This document shows, one piece after another, positions 6,941-22,080 of a stretch of DNA of 64,000 nt (position 1 is its first letter; every line of letters starts with the position of its first letter). The stretch is taken from the NCBI RefSeq assembly GCF_988242995.1, contig NZ_OZ547043.1, one strand, 5' to 3'. Below the pieces are notes generated by a model. The model searched no databases, was not told the origin of the DNA, and worked only from the letters and a program-made list of their open reading frames with translations. Made by a program: the position numbers and the translations under genes.

Positions 6941-8221
6941 TTGTTTGACCGTTATGATGCTGGTGAGCAGGCGGTACTGGTACACATCTATTTTACGCAA
7001 GACAAAGATATGGAAGACCTCCAGGAGTTTGAATCTCTGGTCTCTTCCGCCGGTGTCGAAGCATTGCAGGTGATTACCGGTAGCCGTAAAGCGCCGCACC
7101 CAAAGTATTTTGTAGGTGAAGGTAAAGCAGTTGAAATTGCGGAAGCTGTCAAAGCGACGGGTGCTTCGGTCGTTCTTTTTGACCATGCCCTGAGCCCGGC
7201 GCAAGAGCGTAACCTGGAGCGTTTGTGCGAGTGTCGTGTTATCGACCGCACCGGCCTTATTTTAGATATTTTCGCCCAACGTGCGCGTACCCATGAGGGT
7301 AAGTTGCAGGTTGAGCTGGCGCAGCTGCGCCATCTGGCTACGCGCCTGGTGCGTGGCTGGACCCACCTTGAAAGACAGAAAGGCGGGATAGGTTTGCGTG
7401 GTCCGGGTGAAACCCAGCTCGAAACCGACCGTCGTTTGTTGCGTAATCGCATCGTGCAGATACAGTCGCGCCTGGAAAGAGTTGAAAAGCAGCGTGAGCA
7501 GGGGCGGCAATCGCGTATCAAAGCCGACGTTCCTACTGTTTCGCTGGTGGGATATACCAACGCCGGTAAATCTACCCTTTTCAATCGCATCACCGAAGCG
7601 CGGGTCTACGCGGCAGACCAGTTGTTTGCCACCCTCGACCCGACGTTGCGGCGTATTGACGTCGCGGATGTCGGTGAAACCGTGTTGGCAGATACCGTAG
7701 GGTTTATTCGCCACCTGCCGCACGATCTGGTGGCGGCATTTAAAGCCACGTTACAAGAGACGCGGCAAGCCACATTGCTGCTGCACGTCATTGATGCGGC
7801 GGATGTACGTGTACAAGAAAACATCGAAGCGGTGAATACGGTTCTTGAAGAGATCGACGCTCACGAGATCCCAACCCTGCTGGTGATGAACAAGATCGAT
7901 ATGCTGGAAGATTTCGAACCGCGTATTGATCGGGACGAAGAGAACAAACCGATCCGTGTCTGGCTTTCCGCACAGACCGGAGCGGGGATACCACAGCTTT
8001 TTCAGGCTTTGACGGAGCGGCTTTCCGGCGAGGTGGCGCAGCATACATTGCGTCTGCCACCGCAGGAAGGGCGTCTGAGAAGTCGTTTTTATCAGCTTCA
8101 GGCAATAGAAAAAGAGTGGATGGAGGAGGACGGCAGCGTAAGTCTGCAAGTTCGTATGCCGATCGTTGACTGGCGTCGCCTCTGTAAACAAGAACCGGCG
8201 TTGATCGATTACCTGATCTAA
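6941..8221 (+). CDS. hflX: ribosome-associated GTPase HflX
   Basis: 426-aa ORF with G1 GYTNAGKST and G3/G4 motifs; TTG start at 6941 per ORF track. Confidence 0.92.
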
Positions 8222-8306
8222 CGGCGTAGCGTCTGAAGCGTGGAGTCATATCCTCTGGCGTCGAAAGACAACAGGGATCACCGCATAACAAATATGGAGC
8301 ACAAAC

Positions 8307-9566
8307 ATGGCGTGGAATCAGCCCGGTAATAACGGACAAGACCGCGACCCGTGGGGAAGCAGCAAACCTGGCGGCAACTCTGAGGGAAATGGAAACAAAG
8401 GCGGTCGCGATCAAGGGCCACCTGATTTAGATGATATCTTCCGCAAGCTGAGCAAAAAGCTTGGTGGTCTGGGCGGCGGTAAAGGCACCGGATCTGGCGG
8501 TGGCAGTTCATCGCAAGGCCCGCGCCCGCAGCTTGGCGGTCGTGTCGTTACCATCGCAGCGGCAGCGATTGTCATTATCTGGGCGGCCAGTGGTTTCTAT
8601 ACCATTAAAGAAGCCGAACGTGGCGTGGTAACACGCTTTGGTAAATTCAGCCATCTGGTTGAGCCGGGTCTGAACTGGAAACCGACGTTTATCGACGAAG
8701 TCAAACCGGTGAACGTGGAAGCCGTGCGTGAACTGGCCGCTTCTGGTGTGATGCTGACGTCGGACGAGAACGTAGTGCGCGTTGAGATGAACGTGCAGTA
8801 CCGCGTCACCAATCCGGAAAAATATCTGTATAGCGTGACCAGCCCGGATGACAGTCTGCGTCAGGCTACCGACAGCGCCCTGCGTGGGGTTATCGGTAAA
8901 TACACCATGGACCGCATTCTGACGGAAGGTCGTACCGTGATTCGTAGCGATACTCAGCGCGAACTGGAAGAGACGATTCGTCCGTATGACATGGGTATCA
9001 CTCTGCTGGACGTCAACTTCCAGGCAGCTCGTCCGCCGGAAGAAGTAAAAGCGGCGTTTGACGATGCGATTGCCGCGCGTGAAAACGAACAGCAATATAT
9101 TCGTGAAGCAGAAGCGTATACCAACGAAGTTCAGCCGCGTGCGAACGGTCAGGCGCAACGTATCCTCGAAGAGGCGCGTGCGTACAAGGCCCAGACCATC
9201 CTGGAAGCTCAGGGTGAAGTGGCGCGCTTTGCTAAACTTCTGCCGGAATATAAAGCCGCGCCGGAAATTACTCGCGAGCGTCTGTATATCGAGACGATGG
9301 AAAAAGTGTTGGGCAACACCCGCAAAGTGCTGGTTAACGACAAAGGTGGCAACCTGATGGTTCTGCCGTTAGACCAGATGCTGAAAGGTGGTAACGCCCC
9401 TGCGGCGAAGAGCGATAACGGTGCCAGCAATCTGCTGCGTCTGCCGCCAGCCTCTTCCTCCACAACCAGTGGAGCAAGCAACACGTCGTCCACCAGTCAG
9501 GGCGATATTATGGACCAACGCCGCGCCAACGCGCAGCGTAACGACTACCAGCGTCAGGGGGAATAA
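8307..9566 (+). CDS. hflK: FtsH modulator HflK (SPFH/band-7)
   Basis: 419-aa ORF; Gly-rich N-terminus, TM segment, SPFH domain. Confidence 0.95.
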   Translation: MAWNQPGNNGQDRDPWGSSKPGGNSEGNGNKGGRDQGPPDLDDIFRKLSKKLGGLGGGKGTGSGGGSSSQGPRPQLGGRVVTIAAAAIVIIWAASGFYTIKEAERGVVTRFGKFSHLVEPGLNWKPTFIDEVKPVNVEAVRELAASGVMLTSDENVVRVEMNVQYRVTNPEKYLYSVTSPDDSLRQATDSALRGVIGKYTMDRILTEGRTVIRSDTQRELEETIRPYDMGITLLDVNFQAARPPEEVKAAFDDAIAARENEQQYIREAEAYTNEVQPRANGQAQRILEEARAYKAQTILEAQGEVARFAKLLPEYKAAPEITRERLYIETMEKVLGNTRKVLVNDKGGNLMVLPLDQMLKGGNAPAAKSDNGASNLLRLPPASSSTTSGASNTSSTSQGDIMDQRRANAQRNDYQRQGE

Positions 9567-15454: not shown

Positions 15455-16186
15455 ATGAGCGAAATGATTTACGGCATCCACGCAGTGCAGGCCCTGCTGG
15501 AGCGCGCCCCTGAACGTTTTCAGGAAGTCTTTATTTTAAAAGGCCGTGAAGATAAACGTCTGTTACCGCTGATTCACGCCCTTGAGTCCCAGGGCGTGGT
15601 TATCCAGTTGGCGAACCGTCAGTATCTCGACGAGAAAAGCGACGGTGCCGTGCATCAGGGCATTATCGCCCGCGTGAAGCCAGGACGTCAGTACCAGGAA
15701 AACGATCTGCCGGATCTGATCGCTTCGCTCGATCAGCCGTTCCTGCTGATCCTCGACGGTGTAACCGATCCGCACAACCTCGGCGCGTGCCTGCGTAGCG
15801 CGGACGCCGCAGGTGTTCATGCGGTGATTGTGCCGAAAGATCGCTCCGCACAGCTCAACGCCACGGCGAAAAAAGTAGCCTGCGGCGCGGCAGAAAGCGT
15901 TCCGCTGATTCGGGTGACTAATCTTGCGCGCACCATGCGTATGTTGCAGGAAGAGAATATCTGGATCGTCGGTACGGCAGGTGAGGCGGATCATACACTC
16001 TATCAGAGCAAAATGACCGGACGGCTGGCACTGGTGATGGGCGCGGAAGGTGAAGGTATGCGTCGCCTGACCCGTGAACATTGCGACGAGTTGATCAGCA
16101 TCCCAATGGCAGGAAGCGTTTCTTCCCTGAACGTTTCGGTTGCGACAGGGATTTGCTTATTTGAAGCGGTGCGTCAGCGCAGCTAG
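15455..16186 (+). CDS. rlmB: 23S rRNA (guanosine2251-2'-O)-methyltransferase RlmB
   Basis: 243-aa SpoU-family ORF. Confidence 0.95.
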
Positions 16187-16203
16187 TTCCTCTGAATTAT
16201 GAA

Positions 16204-16234
16204 AAGCCATCCAGATTTGGATGGTTTTTTTTTG
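16204..16234 (+). terminator. rho-independent terminator after rlmB
   Basis: Hairpin gccatcca-gattt-tggatgg followed by 9 T. Confidence 0.7.
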
Positions 16235-16312
16235 TGTTTAGCTGGTAAGATAATTACGTACTGCAAATATTCATTTTGTTAATATTTAAACTAAATCTAT
16301 ATGGAATAATAT

Positions 16313-16714
16313 ATGACATGGAATCCGTTGGCGCTGGCGACGGCGCTGCAAACTGTACCTGAACAAAATATTGATGTAACAAATAGCGAGAACGCATTAA
16401 TTATTAAAATGAATGATTATGGCGATTTGCAAATCAATATTCTTTTTACTTCCCGCCAAATGATTATCGAAACCTTTATTTGTCCGGTGAGTAGTATCAG
16501 CAATCCAGATGAATTTAATACCTTCTTATTAAGAAATCAGAAGATGATGCCGTTGTCATCGGTAGGGATCTCCAGCGTACAACAGGAAGAGTATTACATT
16601 GTTTTCGGGGCGTTATCGCTTAAATCTTCTCTTGAAGATATCCTGCTTGAGATAACCTCACTGGTAGATAACGCATTGGATCTGGCTGAAATTACAGAAG
16701 AATATTCACACTAA
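16313..16714 (+). CDS. yjfI: uncharacterised protein YjfI (DUF2170)
   Basis: 133-aa ORF, first gene of yjfI-yjfC cluster. Confidence 0.85.
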   Translation: MTWNPLALATALQTVPEQNIDVTNSENALIIKMNDYGDLQINILFTSRQMIIETFICPVSSISNPDEFNTFLLRNQKMMPLSSVGISSVQQEEYYIVFGALSLKSSLEDILLEITSLVDNALDLAEITEEYSH

Positions 16715-16732
16715 TTACAAGGACGGGTATTT

Positions 16733-17431
16733 ATGGGAATTTTAAAAAGTTTATTTACGCTGGGGAAATCGTTTATCTCCCAGGCGGAAGAATCCATTGA
16801 AGAAACCCAGGGCGTGCGCATGCTGGAACAGCATATTCGTGACGCTAAAGCTGAACTCGATAAAGCCGGAAAATCTCGCGTTGATCTGCTGGCGCGGGTG
16901 AAATTAAGTCACGATAAGCTGAAAGATTTACGTGAGCGCAAAGCCAGTCTGGAAGCCCGTGCGCTGGAAGCGTTAAGCAAGAACGTTAATCCGTCTTTGA
17001 TTAACGAAGTTGCTGAAGAAATCGCGCGCCTTGAGAATCTCATTACCGCTGAAGAGCAAGTGTTGTCGAATCTGGAAGTCTCCCGTGATGGCGTGGAAAA
17101 AGCAGTTACAGCGACAGCGCAGCGTATCGCTCAGTTTGAGCAGCAAATGGAAGTTGTTAAAGCCACTGAAGCCATGCAGCGTGCACAACAGGCTGTAACA
17201 ACCTCTACCGTTGGCGCATCTTCCAGCGTTTCGACAGCGGCAGAATCCTTAAAACGCCTGCAAACGCGTCAGGCCGAACGTCAGGCTCGTCTGGATGCTG
17301 CTGCACAGTTGGAAAAAGTCGCAGACGGTCGCGATCTTAATGAAAAGCTGGCGGAAGCCGGAATAGGCGGTAGCAATAAAAGTAGCGCCCAGGATGTATT
17401 AGCAAGACTGCAACGCCAACAGGGCGAGTAA
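16733..17431 (+). CDS. yjfJ: PspA/IM30-family protein YjfJ
   Basis: 232-aa ORF, highly charged coiled-coil sequence typical of PspA/Vipp1. Confidence 0.88.
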   Translation: MGILKSLFTLGKSFISQAEESIEETQGVRMLEQHIRDAKAELDKAGKSRVDLLARVKLSHDKLKDLRERKASLEARALEALSKNVNPSLINEVAEEIARLENLITAEEQVLSNLEVSRDGVEKAVTATAQRIAQFEQQMEVVKATEAMQRAQQAVTTSTVGASSSVSTAAESLKRLQTRQAERQARLDAAAQLEKVADGRDLNEKLAEAGIGGSNKSSAQDVLARLQRQQGE

Positions 17432-17481
17432 TTTTTTTGCCAGCCTCACTGCAAGGCTGGCAACTATTTTAAGGATAAAAT

Positions 17482-18141
17482 ATGTCTGGTTTTTTCCAGC
17501 GTCTGTTTGGCAAGGATAATAAGCCTGCTATCGCTCGCGGTCCTCTGGGACTTCATCTCAATAGTGGCTTTACGCTCGACACGTTAGCGTTTCGTTTGCT
17601 GGAAGATGAATTGCTGATTGCGCTGCCGGGTGAGGAATTTACGGTAGCTGCCGTCAGCCGCATCGATCTGGGCGGCGGTAGCCAGATTTTCCGCTACTAC
17701 ACTTCGGGCGATGAATTTCTGCAAATCAATACCACCGGCGGTGAAGATATTGATGACATTGATGATATTAAGCTCTTTGTCTATGAAGAGAGCTACGGTA
17801 TCAGTAAAGAGAGCCACTGGCGCGAGGCGATCAACGCCAAAGCGATGGGGGCTATGACCTTAAACTGGCAGGAAAAACGCTGGCAGCGATTTTTTAACAG
17901 TGAAGAGCCGGGAAATATCGAACCCGTCTACATGCTGGAAAAAGTAGAAAATCAAAACTATGCCAAATGGGAGGTCCATAATTTTACCATGGGCTACCAA
18001 CGGCAAGTAACCGAAGATACTTACGAATATTTGCTGCTAAATGGTGAGGAATCTTTTAACGATCTCGGCGAGCCAGAGTGGTTATTTTCGCGCGCGTTGG
18101 GTGTCGATATCCCGCTGACATCACTTCATATTATTGGTTAA
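17482..18141 (+). CDS. yjfK: uncharacterised protein YjfK (DUF2491)
   Basis: 219-aa ORF. Confidence 0.85.
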   Translation: MSGFFQRLFGKDNKPAIARGPLGLHLNSGFTLDTLAFRLLEDELLIALPGEEFTVAAVSRIDLGGGSQIFRYYTSGDEFLQINTTGGEDIDDIDDIKLFVYEESYGISKESHWREAINAKAMGAMTLNWQEKRWQRFFNSEEPGNIEPVYMLEKVENQNYAKWEVHNFTMGYQRQVTEDTYEYLLLNGEESFNDLGEPEWLFSRALGVDIPLTSLHIIG

Positions 18142-18158
18142 TTACAAGGACGTTTACA

Positions 18159-18557
18159 ATGCATATACTGGATTCTCTTCTTGCCTTTAGTGCCTATTTT
18201 TTTATTGGCGTGGCTATGGTGATTATTTTTCTGTTTATCTATTCTAAAATTACACCGCACAACGAATGGCAGTTAATCAAAAACAATAATACCGCGGCGT
18301 CACTGGCGTTCAGCGGTACATTGTTGGGTTACGTGATCCCCTTATCCAGTGCGGCAATCAATGCGGTGAGTATTCCAGACTATTTCGCCTGGGGCGGGAT
18401 TGCTCTGGTGATTCAATTACTCGTTTTTGCTGGCGTCAGGCTTTATATGCCCGCATTAAGCGAAAAAATTATTAATCACAATACCGCAGCAGGAATGTTT
18501 ATGGGAACCGCCGCACTGGCTGGCGGTATTTTTAACGCAGCTTGTATGACATGGTAA
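18159..18557 (+). CDS. yjfL: small inner-membrane protein YjfL (DUF350)
   Basis: ORF 18078-18557; start at ATG 18159 (MHILDSLLAF...) gives 132 aa; multiple hydrophobic segments. Confidence 0.85.
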   Translation: MHILDSLLAFSAYFFIGVAMVIIFLFIYSKITPHNEWQLIKNNNTAASLAFSGTLLGYVIPLSSAAINAVSIPDYFAWGGIALVIQLLVFAGVRLYMPALSEKIINHNTAAGMFMGTAALAGGIFNAACMTW

Positions 18558-18566
18558 TGGACGATC

Positions 18567-19205
18567 ATGGCCAGAAAACGCAAATCAAGAAATAACAGTA
18601 AAATTGGTCACGGAGCGATCAGTCGCATTGGTAGACCGAATAATCCTTTTGAACCGCGTCGCAATCGTTACGCACAAAAATACTTAACGTTGGCGCTAAT
18701 GGGCGGTGCCGCTTTTTTCGTATTGAAAGGTTGTGGCGATAGTGGCGATGTCGATAACGACGGCGACGGAACGTTTTACTCGACTGTGCAGGATTGTATT
18801 GATGACGGTAATAATTCAGATATCTGTGCTCATGGCTGGAACAACGCCAAAGCGGCGTTTTATGCCGATGTTCCGAAGAATATGACTCAGCAGAATTGTC
18901 AGTCTAAGTATGAAAATTGTTACTACGACAACGTTGAACAGAGTTGGATCCCGGTCGTTTCTGGATTTTTGTTAAGCCGGGTTATTCGTAAAGATCGCGA
19001 TGAGCAGTTTGTTTATAACAGCGGCGGTTCCTCTTTTGCTTCGCGCCCCGTCTGGCGCAACACTTCTGGTGATTACTCCTGGCGCTCCGGTTCTGGCAAA
19101 AAAGAGTCTTACTCTTCGGGCGGCTTTACCACCAAAAAAGCGTCAACCGTTTCTCGCGGCGGCTATGGTCGTTCTTCCAGCGCCCGTGGGCATTGGGGAG
19201 GCTAA
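18567..19205 (+). CDS. yjfM: uncharacterised protein YjfM (DUF1190)
   Basis: 212-aa ORF; basic N-terminus, one hydrophobic segment, Cys-rich middle, Gly/Ser-rich tail. Confidence 0.85.
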   Translation: MARKRKSRNNSKIGHGAISRIGRPNNPFEPRRNRYAQKYLTLALMGGAAFFVLKGCGDSGDVDNDGDGTFYSTVQDCIDDGNNSDICAHGWNNAKAAFYADVPKNMTQQNCQSKYENCYYDNVEQSWIPVVSGFLLSRVIRKDRDEQFVYNSGGSSFASRPVWRNTSGDYSWRSGSGKKESYSSGGFTTKKASTVSRGGYGRSSSARGHWGG

Positions 19206-19207
19206 TC

Positions 19208-20371
19208 ATGCTAAGACACAACGTTCCTGTGCGGCGGGATCTGGACCAGATCGCCGCTGACAACGGTTTCGACTTTCATATCATCGACAATGAAATCTAT
19301 TGGGACGAGAGTCGGGCTTACCGTTTTACTCTGCGCCAGATTGAAGAGCAGATCGAAAAACCGACTGCGGAACTGCATCAGATGTGCCTTGAGGTGGTAG
19401 ATCGCTCGGTTAAAGACGAAGAGATCCTGACGCAACTGGCGATCCCGCCGTTGTACTGGGATGTGATCGCCGAAAGCTGGCGCGCACGCGATCCTTCGCT
19501 GTATGGCCGGATGGATTTTGCCTGGTGTGGCAATGCGCCGGTGAAGCTGCTGGAGTACAACGCCGATACGCCAACCTCGTTGTATGAATCGGCTTATTTC
19601 CAGTGGCTGTGGCTGGAAGATGCCCGGCGCAGCGGCATTATTCCGCGTGATGCCGATCAGTACAATGCCATTCAGGAACGCCTGATTTCGCGCTTTAGTG
19701 AGCTTTACAGTCGGGAACCGTTTTATTTTTGCTGCTGTCAGGACACCGATGAAGACAGGACTACCGTGCTGTATTTGCAGGACTGCGCCCAGCAGGCTGG
19801 GCAGGAGTCGCGGTTTATCTACATTGAAGATCTCGGTTTGGGCGTCGGCGGTGTGCTGACCGATCTTGATGATAATGTCATCCAGCGTGCATTTAAGCTG
19901 TATCCGCTGGAGTGGATGATGCGTGACGATAACGGTCCGCTGCTGCGCAAGCGCCGCGAGCAATGGGTGGAGCCGTTATGGAAAAGTATCTTGAGCAACA
20001 AAGGGTTAATGCCGCTGCTTTGGCGCTTCTTTCCTGGTCATCCTAACCTTCTTGCATCCTGGTTTGAGGGCGAAAAACCGCAGATTGCCGCTGGCGAAAG
20101 CTATGTGCGTAAACCGATCTACTCGCGCGAAGGCGGCAATGTCACCATTTTCGACGGTCAGAATAACGTCGTTGACCACGCTGATGGTGATTACGCCGAT
20201 GAACCGATGATCTACCAGGCGTTTCAACCTCTGCCGCGATTTGGCGATAGCTACACACTCATCGGTAGCTGGATTGTCGATGATGAAGCGTGCGGAATGG
20301 GGATCCGTGAAGATAACACGCTGATCACCAAAGACACCTCACGTTTCGTTCCGCATTACATTGCTGGATAA
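19208..20371 (+). CDS. yjfC: glutathionylspermidine-synthetase-like ATP-grasp protein YjfC
   Basis: ORF 19193-20371; start at ATG 19208 (MLRHNVPVRRDL...) gives 387 aa. Confidence 0.88.
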   Translation: MLRHNVPVRRDLDQIAADNGFDFHIIDNEIYWDESRAYRFTLRQIEEQIEKPTAELHQMCLEVVDRSVKDEEILTQLAIPPLYWDVIAESWRARDPSLYGRMDFAWCGNAPVKLLEYNADTPTSLYESAYFQWLWLEDARRSGIIPRDADQYNAIQERLISRFSELYSREPFYFCCCQDTDEDRTTVLYLQDCAQQAGQESRFIYIEDLGLGVGGVLTDLDDNVIQRAFKLYPLEWMMRDDNGPLLRKRREQWVEPLWKSILSNKGLMPLLWRFFPGHPNLLASWFEGEKPQIAAGESYVRKPIYSREGGNVTIFDGQNNVVDHADGDYADEPMIYQAFQPLPRFGDSYTLIGSWIVDDEACGMGIREDNTLITKDTSRFVPHYIAG

Positions 20372-20454
20372 GAATGTTTTAGCAATCTCTTTCTGTCATG
20401 AATCCATGGCAGTGACCATACTAAGGGTGACTGCCATTGATGGAGGGAGACACA

Positions 20455-22080
20455 GTGCACTGGCAAACTCACACCGTTTTTAATCAACCTATACCATTAA
20501 ATAACAGCAACTTATACCTGTCTGACGGCGCGCTCTGTGAAGCGGTAACGCGTGAAGGTGCTGGCTGGGATAGCGATTTTCTAGCCAGTATTGGTCAGCA
20601 GTTAGGAACGGCTGAATCTCTTGAACTGGGGCGGCTGGCGAATGTGAATCCGCCTGAATTATTGCGCTACGATGCGCAAGGACGCCATCTGGACGATGTG
20701 CGTTTTCACCCCGCCTGGCACTTGCTGATGCAGGCGCTATGTACCAATCGGGTGCACAATCTTGCCTGGGAAGAAGACGCTCGCTCCGGCGCATTTGTGG
20801 CGCGCGCGGCGCGTTTTATGTTGCACGCACAGGTTGAGGCAGGGTCGTTATGTCCGATAACGATGACCTTTGCCGCCATGCCATTGCTGTTACAGATGTT
20901 ACCCGCGCCGTTTCAGGACTGGACCACGCCGCTGTTGAGCGATCGCTACGATTCTCACTTATTGCCAGGTGGGCAAAAACGCGGTTTGTTGATTGGCATG
21001 GGAATGACGGAAAAGCAGGGCGGTTCCGATGTCATGAGCAACACCACCCGCGCAGAGCGCCTGGAAGATGGCTCTTATCGGCTGGTGGGGCATAAATGGT
21101 TTTTCTCGGTGCCGCAAAGCGATGCGCATCTGGTGCTGGCGCAGACTACGGGCGGTTTGTCCTGCTTTTTTGTGCCGCGCTTTTTGCCTGACGGGCAACG
21201 CAACGCGATTCGCCTCGAGCGGCTGAAAGATAAGCTGGGTAATCGCTCTAACGCCAGCTGCGAAGTGGAGTTTCAGGATGCCATTGGCTGGTTGTTGGGG
21301 CAGGAAGGGGAAGGAATTCGTCTGATCCTGAAAATGGGTGGGATGACGCGTTTTGATTGCGCCCTGGGTAGCCATGCCATGATGCGCCGTGCATTTTCGC
21401 TAGCGATTTATCATGCACATCAACGCCATGTTTTTGGTAATCCATTGATCCAACAGCCCCTTATGCGTCATGTCTTAAGTCGCATGGCACTTCAGCTTGA
21501 AGGGCAAACGGCGTTGCTGTTTCGTCTTGCGCGAGCGTGGGACCGGCGTGCCGATGCCAAAGAAGCTCTGTGGGCGCGTTTATTTACGCCTGCGGCGAAA
21601 TTTGTGATCTGCAAACGAGGTATGCCGTTTGTGGCCGAAGCGATGGAGGTGCTGGGCGGCATTGGTTATTGCGAGGAGAGCGAGCTGCCGCGGCTTTACC
21701 GGGAGATGCCGGTAAACAGTATTTGGGAAGGTTCCGGTAATATTATGTGCCTGGATGTACTGCGCGTGCTCAATAAGCAAGCAGGTGTATACGACTTATT
21801 GTCGGAAGCATTTGTGGAAGTGAAAGGGCAGGATCGCTATTTTGATCGCGCGGTACGTCGTTTACAGCAGCAGCTGCGTAAGCCTGCTGAAGAACTGGGG
21901 CGAGAGATTACTCATCAGCTATTCCTGCTGGGCTGCGGTGCGCAAATGTTGAAATATGCCTCTCCGCCAATGGCGCAGGCGTGGTGTCAGGTGATGTTAG
22001 ATACGCGCGGCGGCGTACGGTTGTCAGAGCAGATCCAGAATGATTTATTGCTGCGGGCGACGGGGGGAGTGTGTGTGTAA
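20455..22080 (+). CDS. aidB: acyl-CoA-dehydrogenase-like adaptive-response protein AidB
   Basis: ORF 20437-22080; GTG start at 20455 (HWQTHTVFNQPIPL...) gives 541 aa. Confidence 0.92.
   Translation: MHWQTHTVFNQPIPLNNSNLYLSDGALCEAVTREGAGWDSDFLASIGQQLGTAESLELGRLANVNPPELLRYDAQGRHLDDVRFHPAWHLLMQALCTNRVHNLAWEEDARSGAFVARAARFMLHAQVEAGSLCPITMTFAAMPLLLQMLPAPFQDWTTPLLSDRYDSHLLPGGQKRGLLIGMGMTEKQGGSDVMSNTTRAERLEDGSYRLVGHKWFFSVPQSDAHLVLAQTTGGLSCFFVPRFLPDGQRNAIRLERLKDKLGNRSNASCEVEFQDAIGWLLGQEGEGIRLILKMGGMTRFDCALGSHAMMRRAFSLAIYHAHQRHVFGNPLIQQPLMRHVLSRMALQLEGQTALLFRLARAWDRRADAKEALWARLFTPAAKFVICKRGMPFVAEAMEVLGGIGYCEESELPRLYREMPVNSIWEGSGNIMCLDVLRVLNKQAGVYDLLSEAFVEVKGQDRYFDRAVRRLQQQLRKPAEELGREITHQLFLLGCGAQMLKYASPPMAQAWCQVMLDTRGGVRLSEQIQNDLLLRATGGVCV

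Follow-up and report, generated by a model that had tools for sequence, protein, structure and literature searches.

Organization of the yjfIJKLMC Locus

The window, by which we mean the whole 64,000-nucleotide stretch of contig NZ_OZ547043.1 (NCBI RefSeq assembly GCF_988242995.1) analyzed here, carries the cluster yjfI-yjfJ-yjfK-yjfL-yjfM-yjfC, six co-directional open reading frames (ORFs) on the plus strand (Table 1). According to our analysis, YjfC, an ATP-grasp ligase related to glutathionylspermidine (GSP) synthetase, belongs to a family whose genes are almost always coupled to a gene for a DUF1190 protein, here YjfM, and most DUF1190 proteins end in Gly-Gly (GG). Our tentative proposal is that the C-terminal glycine of YjfM is the site at which YjfC attaches spermidine. 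The cluster is an already described, functionally unsolved system; new here are the near-obligate pairing of DUF1190 and ligase, the C-terminal GG, the relation of the residue preceding it to the operon type, and the loss of a channel gene in Escherichia coli.

The original prediction for this DNA had described tightly packed ORFs behind a strong rlmB terminator and an AT-rich promoter region. Recomputation gave identical coordinates and intergenic gaps of 18, 50, 17, 9, and 2 bp, and the terminator consists of a 13-pair hairpin and a T-run. The upstream region is AT-rich, as had been said; a consensus scan of the 126 bp 5′ of yjfI revealed no sigma-70-like site. The same simple scan found no terminator-like site in the interval between yjfC and aidB. 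The genes rnr and rlmB lie upstream of the cluster, rlmB ending at 16186, and aidB lies downstream of yjfC, from 20437 on. The starts adopted for two genes are internal to the longest ORF, which would begin at GTG 18078 for yjfL and at TTG 19193 for yjfC; the latter is taken to start at the ATG of MLRHN.

Of 5426 complete E. coli genomes, 5425 contain the stretch, with yjfI, yjfJ, yjfK, yjfM, and yjfC annotated, and the cluster is core E. coli DNA. For positions 16100–20500, the best identity to any of the 5,426 genomes was 98.8%, so that the source lineage has no exact counterpart among them.

Table 1. Coordinates of the genes and other features of the yjfIJKLMC locus in the window.
Feature	Position	Strand	Description
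AT-rich region 5′ of yjfI	16187..16312	+	126 bp, 73.8% A+T; presumed weak promoter
rlmB intrinsic terminator	16201..16230	+	13-pair hairpin, then T-run reaching 16233
yjfI	16313..16714	+	DUF2170, CesT/Tir-like chaperone family, 133 aa
yjfJ	16733..17431	+	PspA/IM30 (ESCRT-III-like), 232 aa
Hairpin in 50-bp yjfJ-yjfK spacer	17437..17463	+	RNA fold -18.5 kcal/mol, z = -3.1
yjfK	17482..18141	+	DUF2491, 219 aa, beta-rich, without strongly hydrophobic segment
yjfL	18159..18557	+	DUF350 polytopic inner-membrane protein, 132 aa, internal ATG
yjfM	18567..19205	+	DUF1190, 212 aa
Codons for YjfM tail motif T-V-S-R-G-G-Y-G (residues 194-201)	19146..19169	+	family consensus T.SRGGFG
Codons for YjfM C-terminal W-G-G	19194..19202	+	proposed spermidine acceptor end; family GG conservation
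yjfC	19208..20371	+	ATP-grasp peptide-spermidine ligase, GSP-synthetase family, without amidase domain, 387 aa

Pairing of the Ligase Gene With DUF1190

One genome per species was scanned with a 14-sequence alignment of YjfC and YgiC, and the neighborhoods of the ligase genes were annotated by profiles of the window proteins. Among the resulting 80 loci, DUF1190 was found in 78, DUF350 in 48, DUF2491 in 34, PspA in 32, DUF2170 in 30, and TolC in 26. The DUF1190 gene lies upstream of the ligase gene, mostly at a distance of 2–6 bp or overlapping with it, which suggests translational coupling of the two. DUF1190 is missing from two loci, one of which is truncated by a contig end; the other (L059) is the lone true exception among 79 evaluable loci. 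Approached from the DUF1190 side, the ligase gene was directly next in all five divergent representatives on long enough contigs (four by a recorded GSP_synth hit, the fifth judged from its translation). The description of the ligase as an orphan in the original prediction is therefore not upheld; in E. coli itself a paralogous pair, ygiB-ygiC, exists besides yjfM-yjfC.

The exceptional locus L059 comes from Photobacterium pectinilyticum; its solo yjfC-like ligase gene (7956–9164) is preceded by about 690 bp of non-coding DNA without a detectable DUF1190 remnant.

The loci differ in what surrounds the pair. The full order DUF2170-PspA-(about 1 kb, channel gene)-DUF2491-DUF350-DUF1190-ligase recurs in 26 of the 80 loci from other species. 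Its carriers include Alteromonadales, Vibrionales, Oceanospirillales, and a Desulfurivibrionaceae genome, and this is the conservation of gene neighborhood that had been named as a check of the cluster. TolC-DUF1190-ligase was found in 25 loci (26 when one with DUF1190 split in two ORFs is counted) and DUF350-DUF1190-ligase alone in 14, among them the yjfC orthologues of Citrobacter, Mangrovibacter, Erwinia, and Providencia, which occur without yjfIJK. Four loci hold the bare DUF1190-ligase pair, and a few, including some from Alphaproteobacteria, are rearranged yet linked. The DUF350 gene lies directly upstream of DUF1190 in 48 of the 80 loci.

What stays invariant is thus the DUF1190-ligase pair, often joined by DUF350; the PspA dyad, the channel, and DUF2491 together make up a separable outer module. 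The view of the six genes as a single unit stands as regards their tight packing and co-conservation, but the loci that carry only DUF350 or tolC with the pair show that the cluster is modular.

Two further observations were made at these loci. A gene for a rhomboid-family intramembrane protease of about 184 aa lies directly 3′ of the ligase gene in 15 of them (L013, L014, L016, L019, L023, L028, L030, L033, L037, L040, L041, L048, L055, L060, and L062; for example, at 9232–9813 of L014). Its product matched PF01694 at 4.3e-19, with a weak similarity to rhombosortases that is below the cut-off; the window has no such gene. Its position suggests that a cluster protein may be processed at the membrane. 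In L083 (2612–6730), a divergent pair, whose DUF1190 protein ends in ...SAGE, follows a TROVE/Ro60-vWA gene and precedes a run of small ORFs; this context is unusual and possibly represents a mobile element.

The Ligase YjfC

YjfC matched PDB entries 7UK6 and 7UK7, which bear the name YjfC, at 1.2e-273. Its similarity to GspS (2.9e-32) and trypanothione synthetase (1.5e-37) is restricted to their synthetase halves, and since the alignment to GspS is confined to residues 253–613 of 619, YjfC is without the amidase half, in agreement with what had been predicted. It scored 163 bits against the NCBIfam model of the bifunctional enzyme (cut-off 882) and lacks the N-terminal amidase architecture; the precomputed PF03738 assignments of YjfC homologues place it in the GSP_synth family. 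The reaction of GspS and trypanothione synthetase is ATP-dependent: the carboxylate of the glutathione glycine is activated and amidated with spermidine.

According to the papers that cite Sui (2012), YgiC and YjfC have no glutathionylspermidine synthetase activity, so the earlier statement that YjfC had been reported inactive on glutathione plus spermidine was correct yet outdated. Papers citing Pederick (2023, PMID 36745518) ascribe to both enzymes an in vitro peptide-spermidine ligase activity, the physiological substrate being unknown, and the RefSeq name of YgiC is “peptide--spermidine ligase.” The claim that the substrate of the ligase is undefined thus holds for the physiological substrate only; YjfC has solved structures, and an in vitro activity is ascribed to it. 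Loss of ygiBC and yjfMC is reported to worsen the growth defect of tolC mutants; the pairs are treated in the literature as redundant, with an envelope and metabolic phenotype in these mutants.

YjfM and the C-Terminus of DUF1190 Proteins

YjfM matched Pfam PF06693 (DUF1190) at 9.3e-18 over residues 69–211. The basic N-terminus and the Gly/Ser/Arg-rich tail that had been noted are present, but the number of cysteines is five (residues 56, 77, 87, 111, and 118), not six, and the hydrophobic segment resembles a signal-peptide or lipobox-type segment with the sequence LKGC, not a long membrane helix. Four of the cysteines are conserved in the family and line up with its alignment, as do the SRGGFG motif and the terminal WGG. 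A canonical lipobox, L[AST][GA]C, lies some 19 residues into the sequence of most DUF1190 members; in YjfM and its enterobacterial orthologues, a basic extension of 35–45 residues is present and LKGC or IKGC takes the place of this lipobox. A central patch of DUF1190 (F.P.MAGF) was considered as a second membrane helix, which would place the tail in the cytoplasm, and was rejected because its Kyte-Doolittle means over 19 residues were below 0.85.

YjfM was searched by HMMER against all of 1.84 billion cluster representatives, with 155 hits, 114 of them full-length (representatives at 50% identity). GG forms the C-terminus of 92 of the 114 full-length representatives and GS that of 15. At the ligase loci, 71 of 76 DUF1190 proteins (93%) end in GG, vs. 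0.57% of the other ORFs of at least 150 aa from the same loci. The tail consensus consists of T.SRGGFG, a variable stretch of Ser, Arg, Lys, and Gly, and then a hydrophobic residue followed by G-G-stop, with 1 to 41 residues between the RGGFG motif and the C-terminus. That GG remains terminal despite this variable distance points to selection on the C-terminus itself.

The residue before GG varies with the operon type: PspA-type loci mostly have WGG (28 of 32), and tolC-type loci mostly have MGG (19 of 27). YjfM accordingly has the C-terminus ...ARGHWGG (tail ...TVSRGGYGRSSSARGHWGG), and YgiB has ...SRSMGG. The tails of Alteromonas-type loci contain a repeated SSWG[GS] unit. We found no earlier proposal, in the literature searched, that the C-terminus of YgiB or YjfM is spermidinylated.

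Several database proteins of 548–601 aa from E. coli (P0255–P0259) have the appearance of natural YjfM-YjfC fusions. Real fusions would have spoken against a free C-terminus, but these proteins were rejected as frameshifted products that represent pseudogenes or sequencing errors: the frame is shifted within the tail-coding part of yjfM (19146–19210), for instance behind the A-run encoding TTKK, so that reading continues in the yjfC frame and SRGGYG...WGG is destroyed.

The PspA Module and a Lost K+ Channel Gene

The assignment of YjfJ as a PspA/IM30-type protein is borne out by a match to Pfam PF04012 (PspA_IM30) at 3.5e-57 over its full length (residues 2–232, model positions 1–220 of 220). 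Searched by phmmer against PDB sequences, YjfJ found no PspA or Vipp1 at E ≤0.01 and is therefore a divergent member of the family; its sole published assembly model is a homology-built 48-mer (PMC12492005). YjfI matched the DUF2170 crystal structure 8Q8O_A at 1.1e-16 (residues 3–128) and reached 93.7 bits against the NCBIfam BacA model NF050185, whose cut-off is 300, and is thus not a BacA equivalog. YjfK matched DUF2491 at 3e-70, and YjfL, predicted to be a small polytopic membrane protein, has a DUF350 match at 1.4e-33 and several hydrophobic segments consistent with this. The DUF2170 gene adjoins the PspA gene in 30 loci. None of the cluster genes encodes PspB, PspC, or PspF, so the cluster does not represent the canonical Psp system of PspA with the PspB/PspC sensors and the sigma-54 activator PspF. 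An anti-phage defense system was also considered and rejected, because PADLOC models matched none of the cluster proteins apart from weak coiled-coil noise for YjfJ (E ~1e-3).

In 26 of 32 PspA-type loci, a gene for a K+ channel of about 350 aa fills the interval of roughly 1 kb that separates PspA from DUF2491; it also occurs in four loci without a PspA gene, which makes 30 loci overall. Its product matched Ion_trans_2 at 1.9e-10 and, weakly, TrkA_N, and has the filter sequence TLGFGD or TVGYGD. Carriers of the gene include Citrobacter youngae and Enterobacter sp. ENT03, as well as the loci L003, L005, and L006. L003 is labeled E. coli and belongs to the Escherichia clade, but its DNA is only 84–92% identical to the window. 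The channel gene of L003 (3072–4134) is translationally coupled at both ends via TAATG and ATATGA overlaps, and in the alignment to this locus 47 bp of the window (17433–17479) replace about 1063 bp. Judging from this comparison, E. coli has lost a K+ channel gene that its relatives carry between yjfJ and yjfK.

The spacer that remains holds a stable hairpin. It was considered as a repeated element, which was rejected since each E. coli genome has a single copy. The hairpin does not stop transcription, because a published iModulon spans it (PMC12492005); it may attenuate transcription or stabilize the yjfIJ message.

This iModulon consists of yjfIJKL and is separate from others; heat-evolved strains strongly up-regulate it as the result of a 1-nt deletion located 80 bp 5′ of yjfI (Rychel et al., 2025, PMC12492005). 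It takes in yjfIJKL and not yjfMC (PMC12492005). The role in the envelope or membrane that had been suggested for the cluster fits this up-regulation, as well as the PspA match of YjfJ and the genetics of the tolC growth defect.

Two observations on the DNA touch on this expression pattern. The up-mutation would map in the window to about 16233, the last T of the nine-T run (16225–16233) of the rlmB terminator, and might alter read-through from rnr-rlmB or the promoter spacing. At 18507–18527, within the 3′ end of yjfL and 30 nt before its stop codon, lies a terminator-like hairpin (7 pairs, 5 of them G-C, then ATTTTTAA), which could be related to the iModulon containing yjfIJKL without yjfMC or could be due to chance.

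Proposed Function and Alternative Explanations

Based on the results of the comparative analysis, we view the cluster as a composite operon, in which a PspA-type membrane-repair pair (YjfI-YjfJ, together with YjfK) is joined to YjfL-YjfM-YjfC and YjfC spermidinylates the C-terminal glycine of YjfM. We favor this reading tentatively, and our confidence in it falls somewhat short of probable; what we infer from the data above is that YjfM is the acceptor, when it is modified with respect to its export, and what YjfK and YjfL do. On this model, YjfJ would polymerize on the inner face of the damaged inner membrane, with YjfI as its CesT-like dimeric partner, which would hold or regulate it. In the cytoplasm, YjfC would activate the C-terminal Gly carboxylate of YjfM as an acyl phosphate and then amidate it with spermidine, before or during Sec export, giving rise to a polyamine-tipped envelope protein, and YjfL (DUF350) would act as a membrane partner of the YjfM-YjfC pair. 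A wider generalization is that DUF1190 proteins such as YjfM and YgiB are dedicated substrates of the adjacent ligases: spermidine would be attached to their GG carboxylate by an amide bond in the cytoplasm, and they would then be exported to the envelope. In yjf-type operons, the modification would be wired to an ESCRT-III-like membrane-repair polymer and, ancestrally, to a K+ channel. We consider this generalization rather unlikely to hold.

Given the Gly-carboxylate chemistry of GspS and trypanothione synthetase and the peptide ligation ascribed to YjfC and YgiC, the simplest reading is that the glycine of the neighboring DUF1190 protein is the natural acceptor. For the order of events there is a precedent, though not evidence for the present case: microcin E492 has its Gly/Ser-rich C-terminal tail modified in the cytoplasm and is exported afterwards. 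We built an AlphaFold2 model of the ligase joined through a (GGGGS)6 linker to the last 30 residues of its cognate DUF1190 protein (paired alignment, 39 rows). The predicted local distance difference test score (pLDDT) was about 90 for the ligase and below 50 for the linker. Construct residues 422–435, corresponding to YjfM F187–Y200 with the TVSRGGY motif, had a pLDDT of 50–70 and a beta strand at 429–432. The model thus lends weak support to a predicted docking of this internal motif on the ligase.

Several points weigh against spermidinylation of YjfM. The last 12 residues of the AlphaFold2 construct, including WGG, had a pLDDT below 50, so a terminus placed in the active site is unsupported. 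Most DUF1190 proteins have a lipoprotein signal and four cysteines, indicating a periplasmic tail, and the ligase uses ATP and has no signal peptide; with the central patch too weak for a membrane helix, this mismatch of compartments means that the model needs the modification to take place before or during export. From about 7 to 19% of DUF1190 members end in GS, SS, or GE and still stand beside a ligase, and one genome has the solo ligase described above. Finally, the functional link between the PspA module and the ligase module rests on gene order, and the iModulon has yjfIJKL without yjfMC.

The compartment problem would disappear if YjfC made a small soluble peptide-spermidine conjugate from a cytoplasmic peptide encoded outside the cluster, which would serve for polyamine or redox buffering or be exported via YjfL (in the ygi operon, via TolC) and act together with the DUF1190 protein in the periplasm. 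The nearest characterized relatives, GspS and trypanothione synthetase, use small molecules, the reported in vitro activity is, according to the citing papers, an activity on peptides, in 74 of 80 loci the gene next upstream of the DUF1190-ligase pair encodes DUF350 or TolC, and such operons have been taken as a link between PspA and polyamine metabolism (PMC11237479). However, a small conjugate leaves unexplained why 81–93% of DUF1190 proteins end in GG whatever their tail length and why the residue before GG follows the operon type; moreover, no peptide-forming enzyme is conserved in the clusters, and the near-obligate 2–6 bp coupling to DUF1190 indicates a protein partner. We judge this explanation to be unlikely. 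The strong selection on the last residues is hard to square with DUF1190 as a pure adaptor or regulator that binds the ligase via its SRGGFG motif, the acceptor being the C-terminus of some other protein or an envelope precursor. Such an adaptor would agree with the AlphaFold2 result, in which the internal motif and not the terminus gains confidence beside the ligase, with the DUF1190 members that retain a ligase without a GG end, and with the SSWG[GS] repeats of Alteromonas-type tails, which resemble a binding epitope. It nonetheless shares the compartment problem, and the minimal two-gene loci hold no other conserved acceptor candidate, which makes it improbable in our estimation.

It is also conceivable that the six genes are not one system, and that the PspA-type unit formed by yjfIJ, possibly along with yjfK, and a yjf(L)MC ligase unit are neighbors that are independently transcribed and used. 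The separate occurrence of the ligase unit in the 14 DUF350-type, 26 tolC-type, and 4 bare-pair loci is what this would lead one to expect; the stable hairpin between yjfJ and yjfK, the iModulon of yjfIJKL alone (PMC12492005), and a literature that speaks of yjfIJ and yjfMC point the same way. Yet the full order is kept across several orders of Gammaproteobacteria and in Desulfurivibrionaceae, with linked rearrangements in Alphaproteobacteria, and in relatives the genes overlap or are coupled via the channel gene. In the window the gaps are of 2–50 bp, without a promoter-like site in the upstream region, and the hairpin is traversed by the iModulon. We therefore attach little probability to two unrelated units. 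On the whole, the present evidence favors ligation onto a cluster-encoded protein, which had been put forward as a hypothesis in the original prediction; the observation made there is confirmed, and its interpretation is partly supported.

Significance

Few E. coli enzymes resemble YjfC and YgiC in having solved structures and an in vitro activity but no known physiological substrate, and YjfJ is a second, unstudied PspA/ESCRT-III homologue of E. coli. If the proposed reaction is real, C-terminal protein spermidinylation would be a previously undescribed bacterial post-translational modification; it would link polyamines to envelope maintenance and could account for the ygiBC/yjfMC phenotypes of tolC mutants. 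The pairing, the terminal GG, and the residue before it narrow the substrate question to YjfM as a concrete candidate. Should the spermidinylation idea fail, the small-molecule conjugate model is the next to pursue.

Comparison With Known Systems

LysX acting on LysW, RimK on ribosomal protein S6, tubulin-tyrosine ligase, and MceIJ on microcin E492 all activate the C-terminal carboxylate of a specific protein that is encoded or acts nearby. Of these enzymes, LysX, RimK, and tubulin-tyrosine ligase belong to the ATP-grasp group. None of these systems is known to attach a polyamine or to involve a DUF1190 protein. Their likeness to YjfC is one of logic, without homology beyond the ATP-grasp fold. 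With GspS and trypanothione synthetase, YjfC shares the ATP-grasp synthetase fold and the family; unlike GspS, it is without the CHAP amidase domain and, as reported in papers citing the enzymatic work, acts on peptides and has no GSP synthetase activity.

The E. coli tolC-ygiB-ygiC locus contains a paralogous DUF1190-ligase pair, the two genes being 5 bp apart; YgiC matched YjfC at 3e-129 with 50% identity, and its structure has been solved. In contrast to the yjf cluster, this locus has TolC upstream, has no genes for PspA, DUF2170, DUF2491, or DUF350, and ends its DUF1190 protein in MGG instead of WGG. In Citrobacter rodentium, ygiB is reported to be under Cpx regulation.

The bac operon of Pseudomonas aeruginosa resembles the start of the cluster, since a DUF2170 protein (BacA/PA3732) is followed by a PspA-like protein (BacB/PA3731) and YjfI matches the BacA structure 8Q8O. 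The six genes bacA–F are co-transcribed, and BacA is a negative regulator whose loss raises the other Bac proteins 6- to 13-fold. The two differ in that YjfI scores well under the BacA equivalog cut-off and in that a sigma-54 site has been proposed for bac. The discussion of the bac paper does not equate the operon with either DUF2170 context of Ravi et al.

The third group of CesT/Tir-PspA neighborhoods of Ravi et al. (2024, mSystems, PMC11237479) comprises a DUF2170-PspA dyad, a GSP-synthetase-related ATP-grasp ligase, a K+ channel, a DUF350 protein with four transmembrane segments, DUF1190, and DUF2491; their paper cites E. coli YjfI, YjfJ, and YjfL as prototypes. These authors proposed that PspA-based membrane dynamics monitors polyamines and regarded DUF1190 as a “metal-chelating lipoprotein”; DUF1190 as an acceptor of the ligase was not part of their proposal (PMC11237479). 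The window differs from this group in having a 47-bp hairpin spacer in place of a K+ channel gene with an intracellular ligand-sensing domain, and agrees with it in the CesT-PspA dyad, the ATP-grasp ligase, DUF350, DUF1190, and DUF2491.

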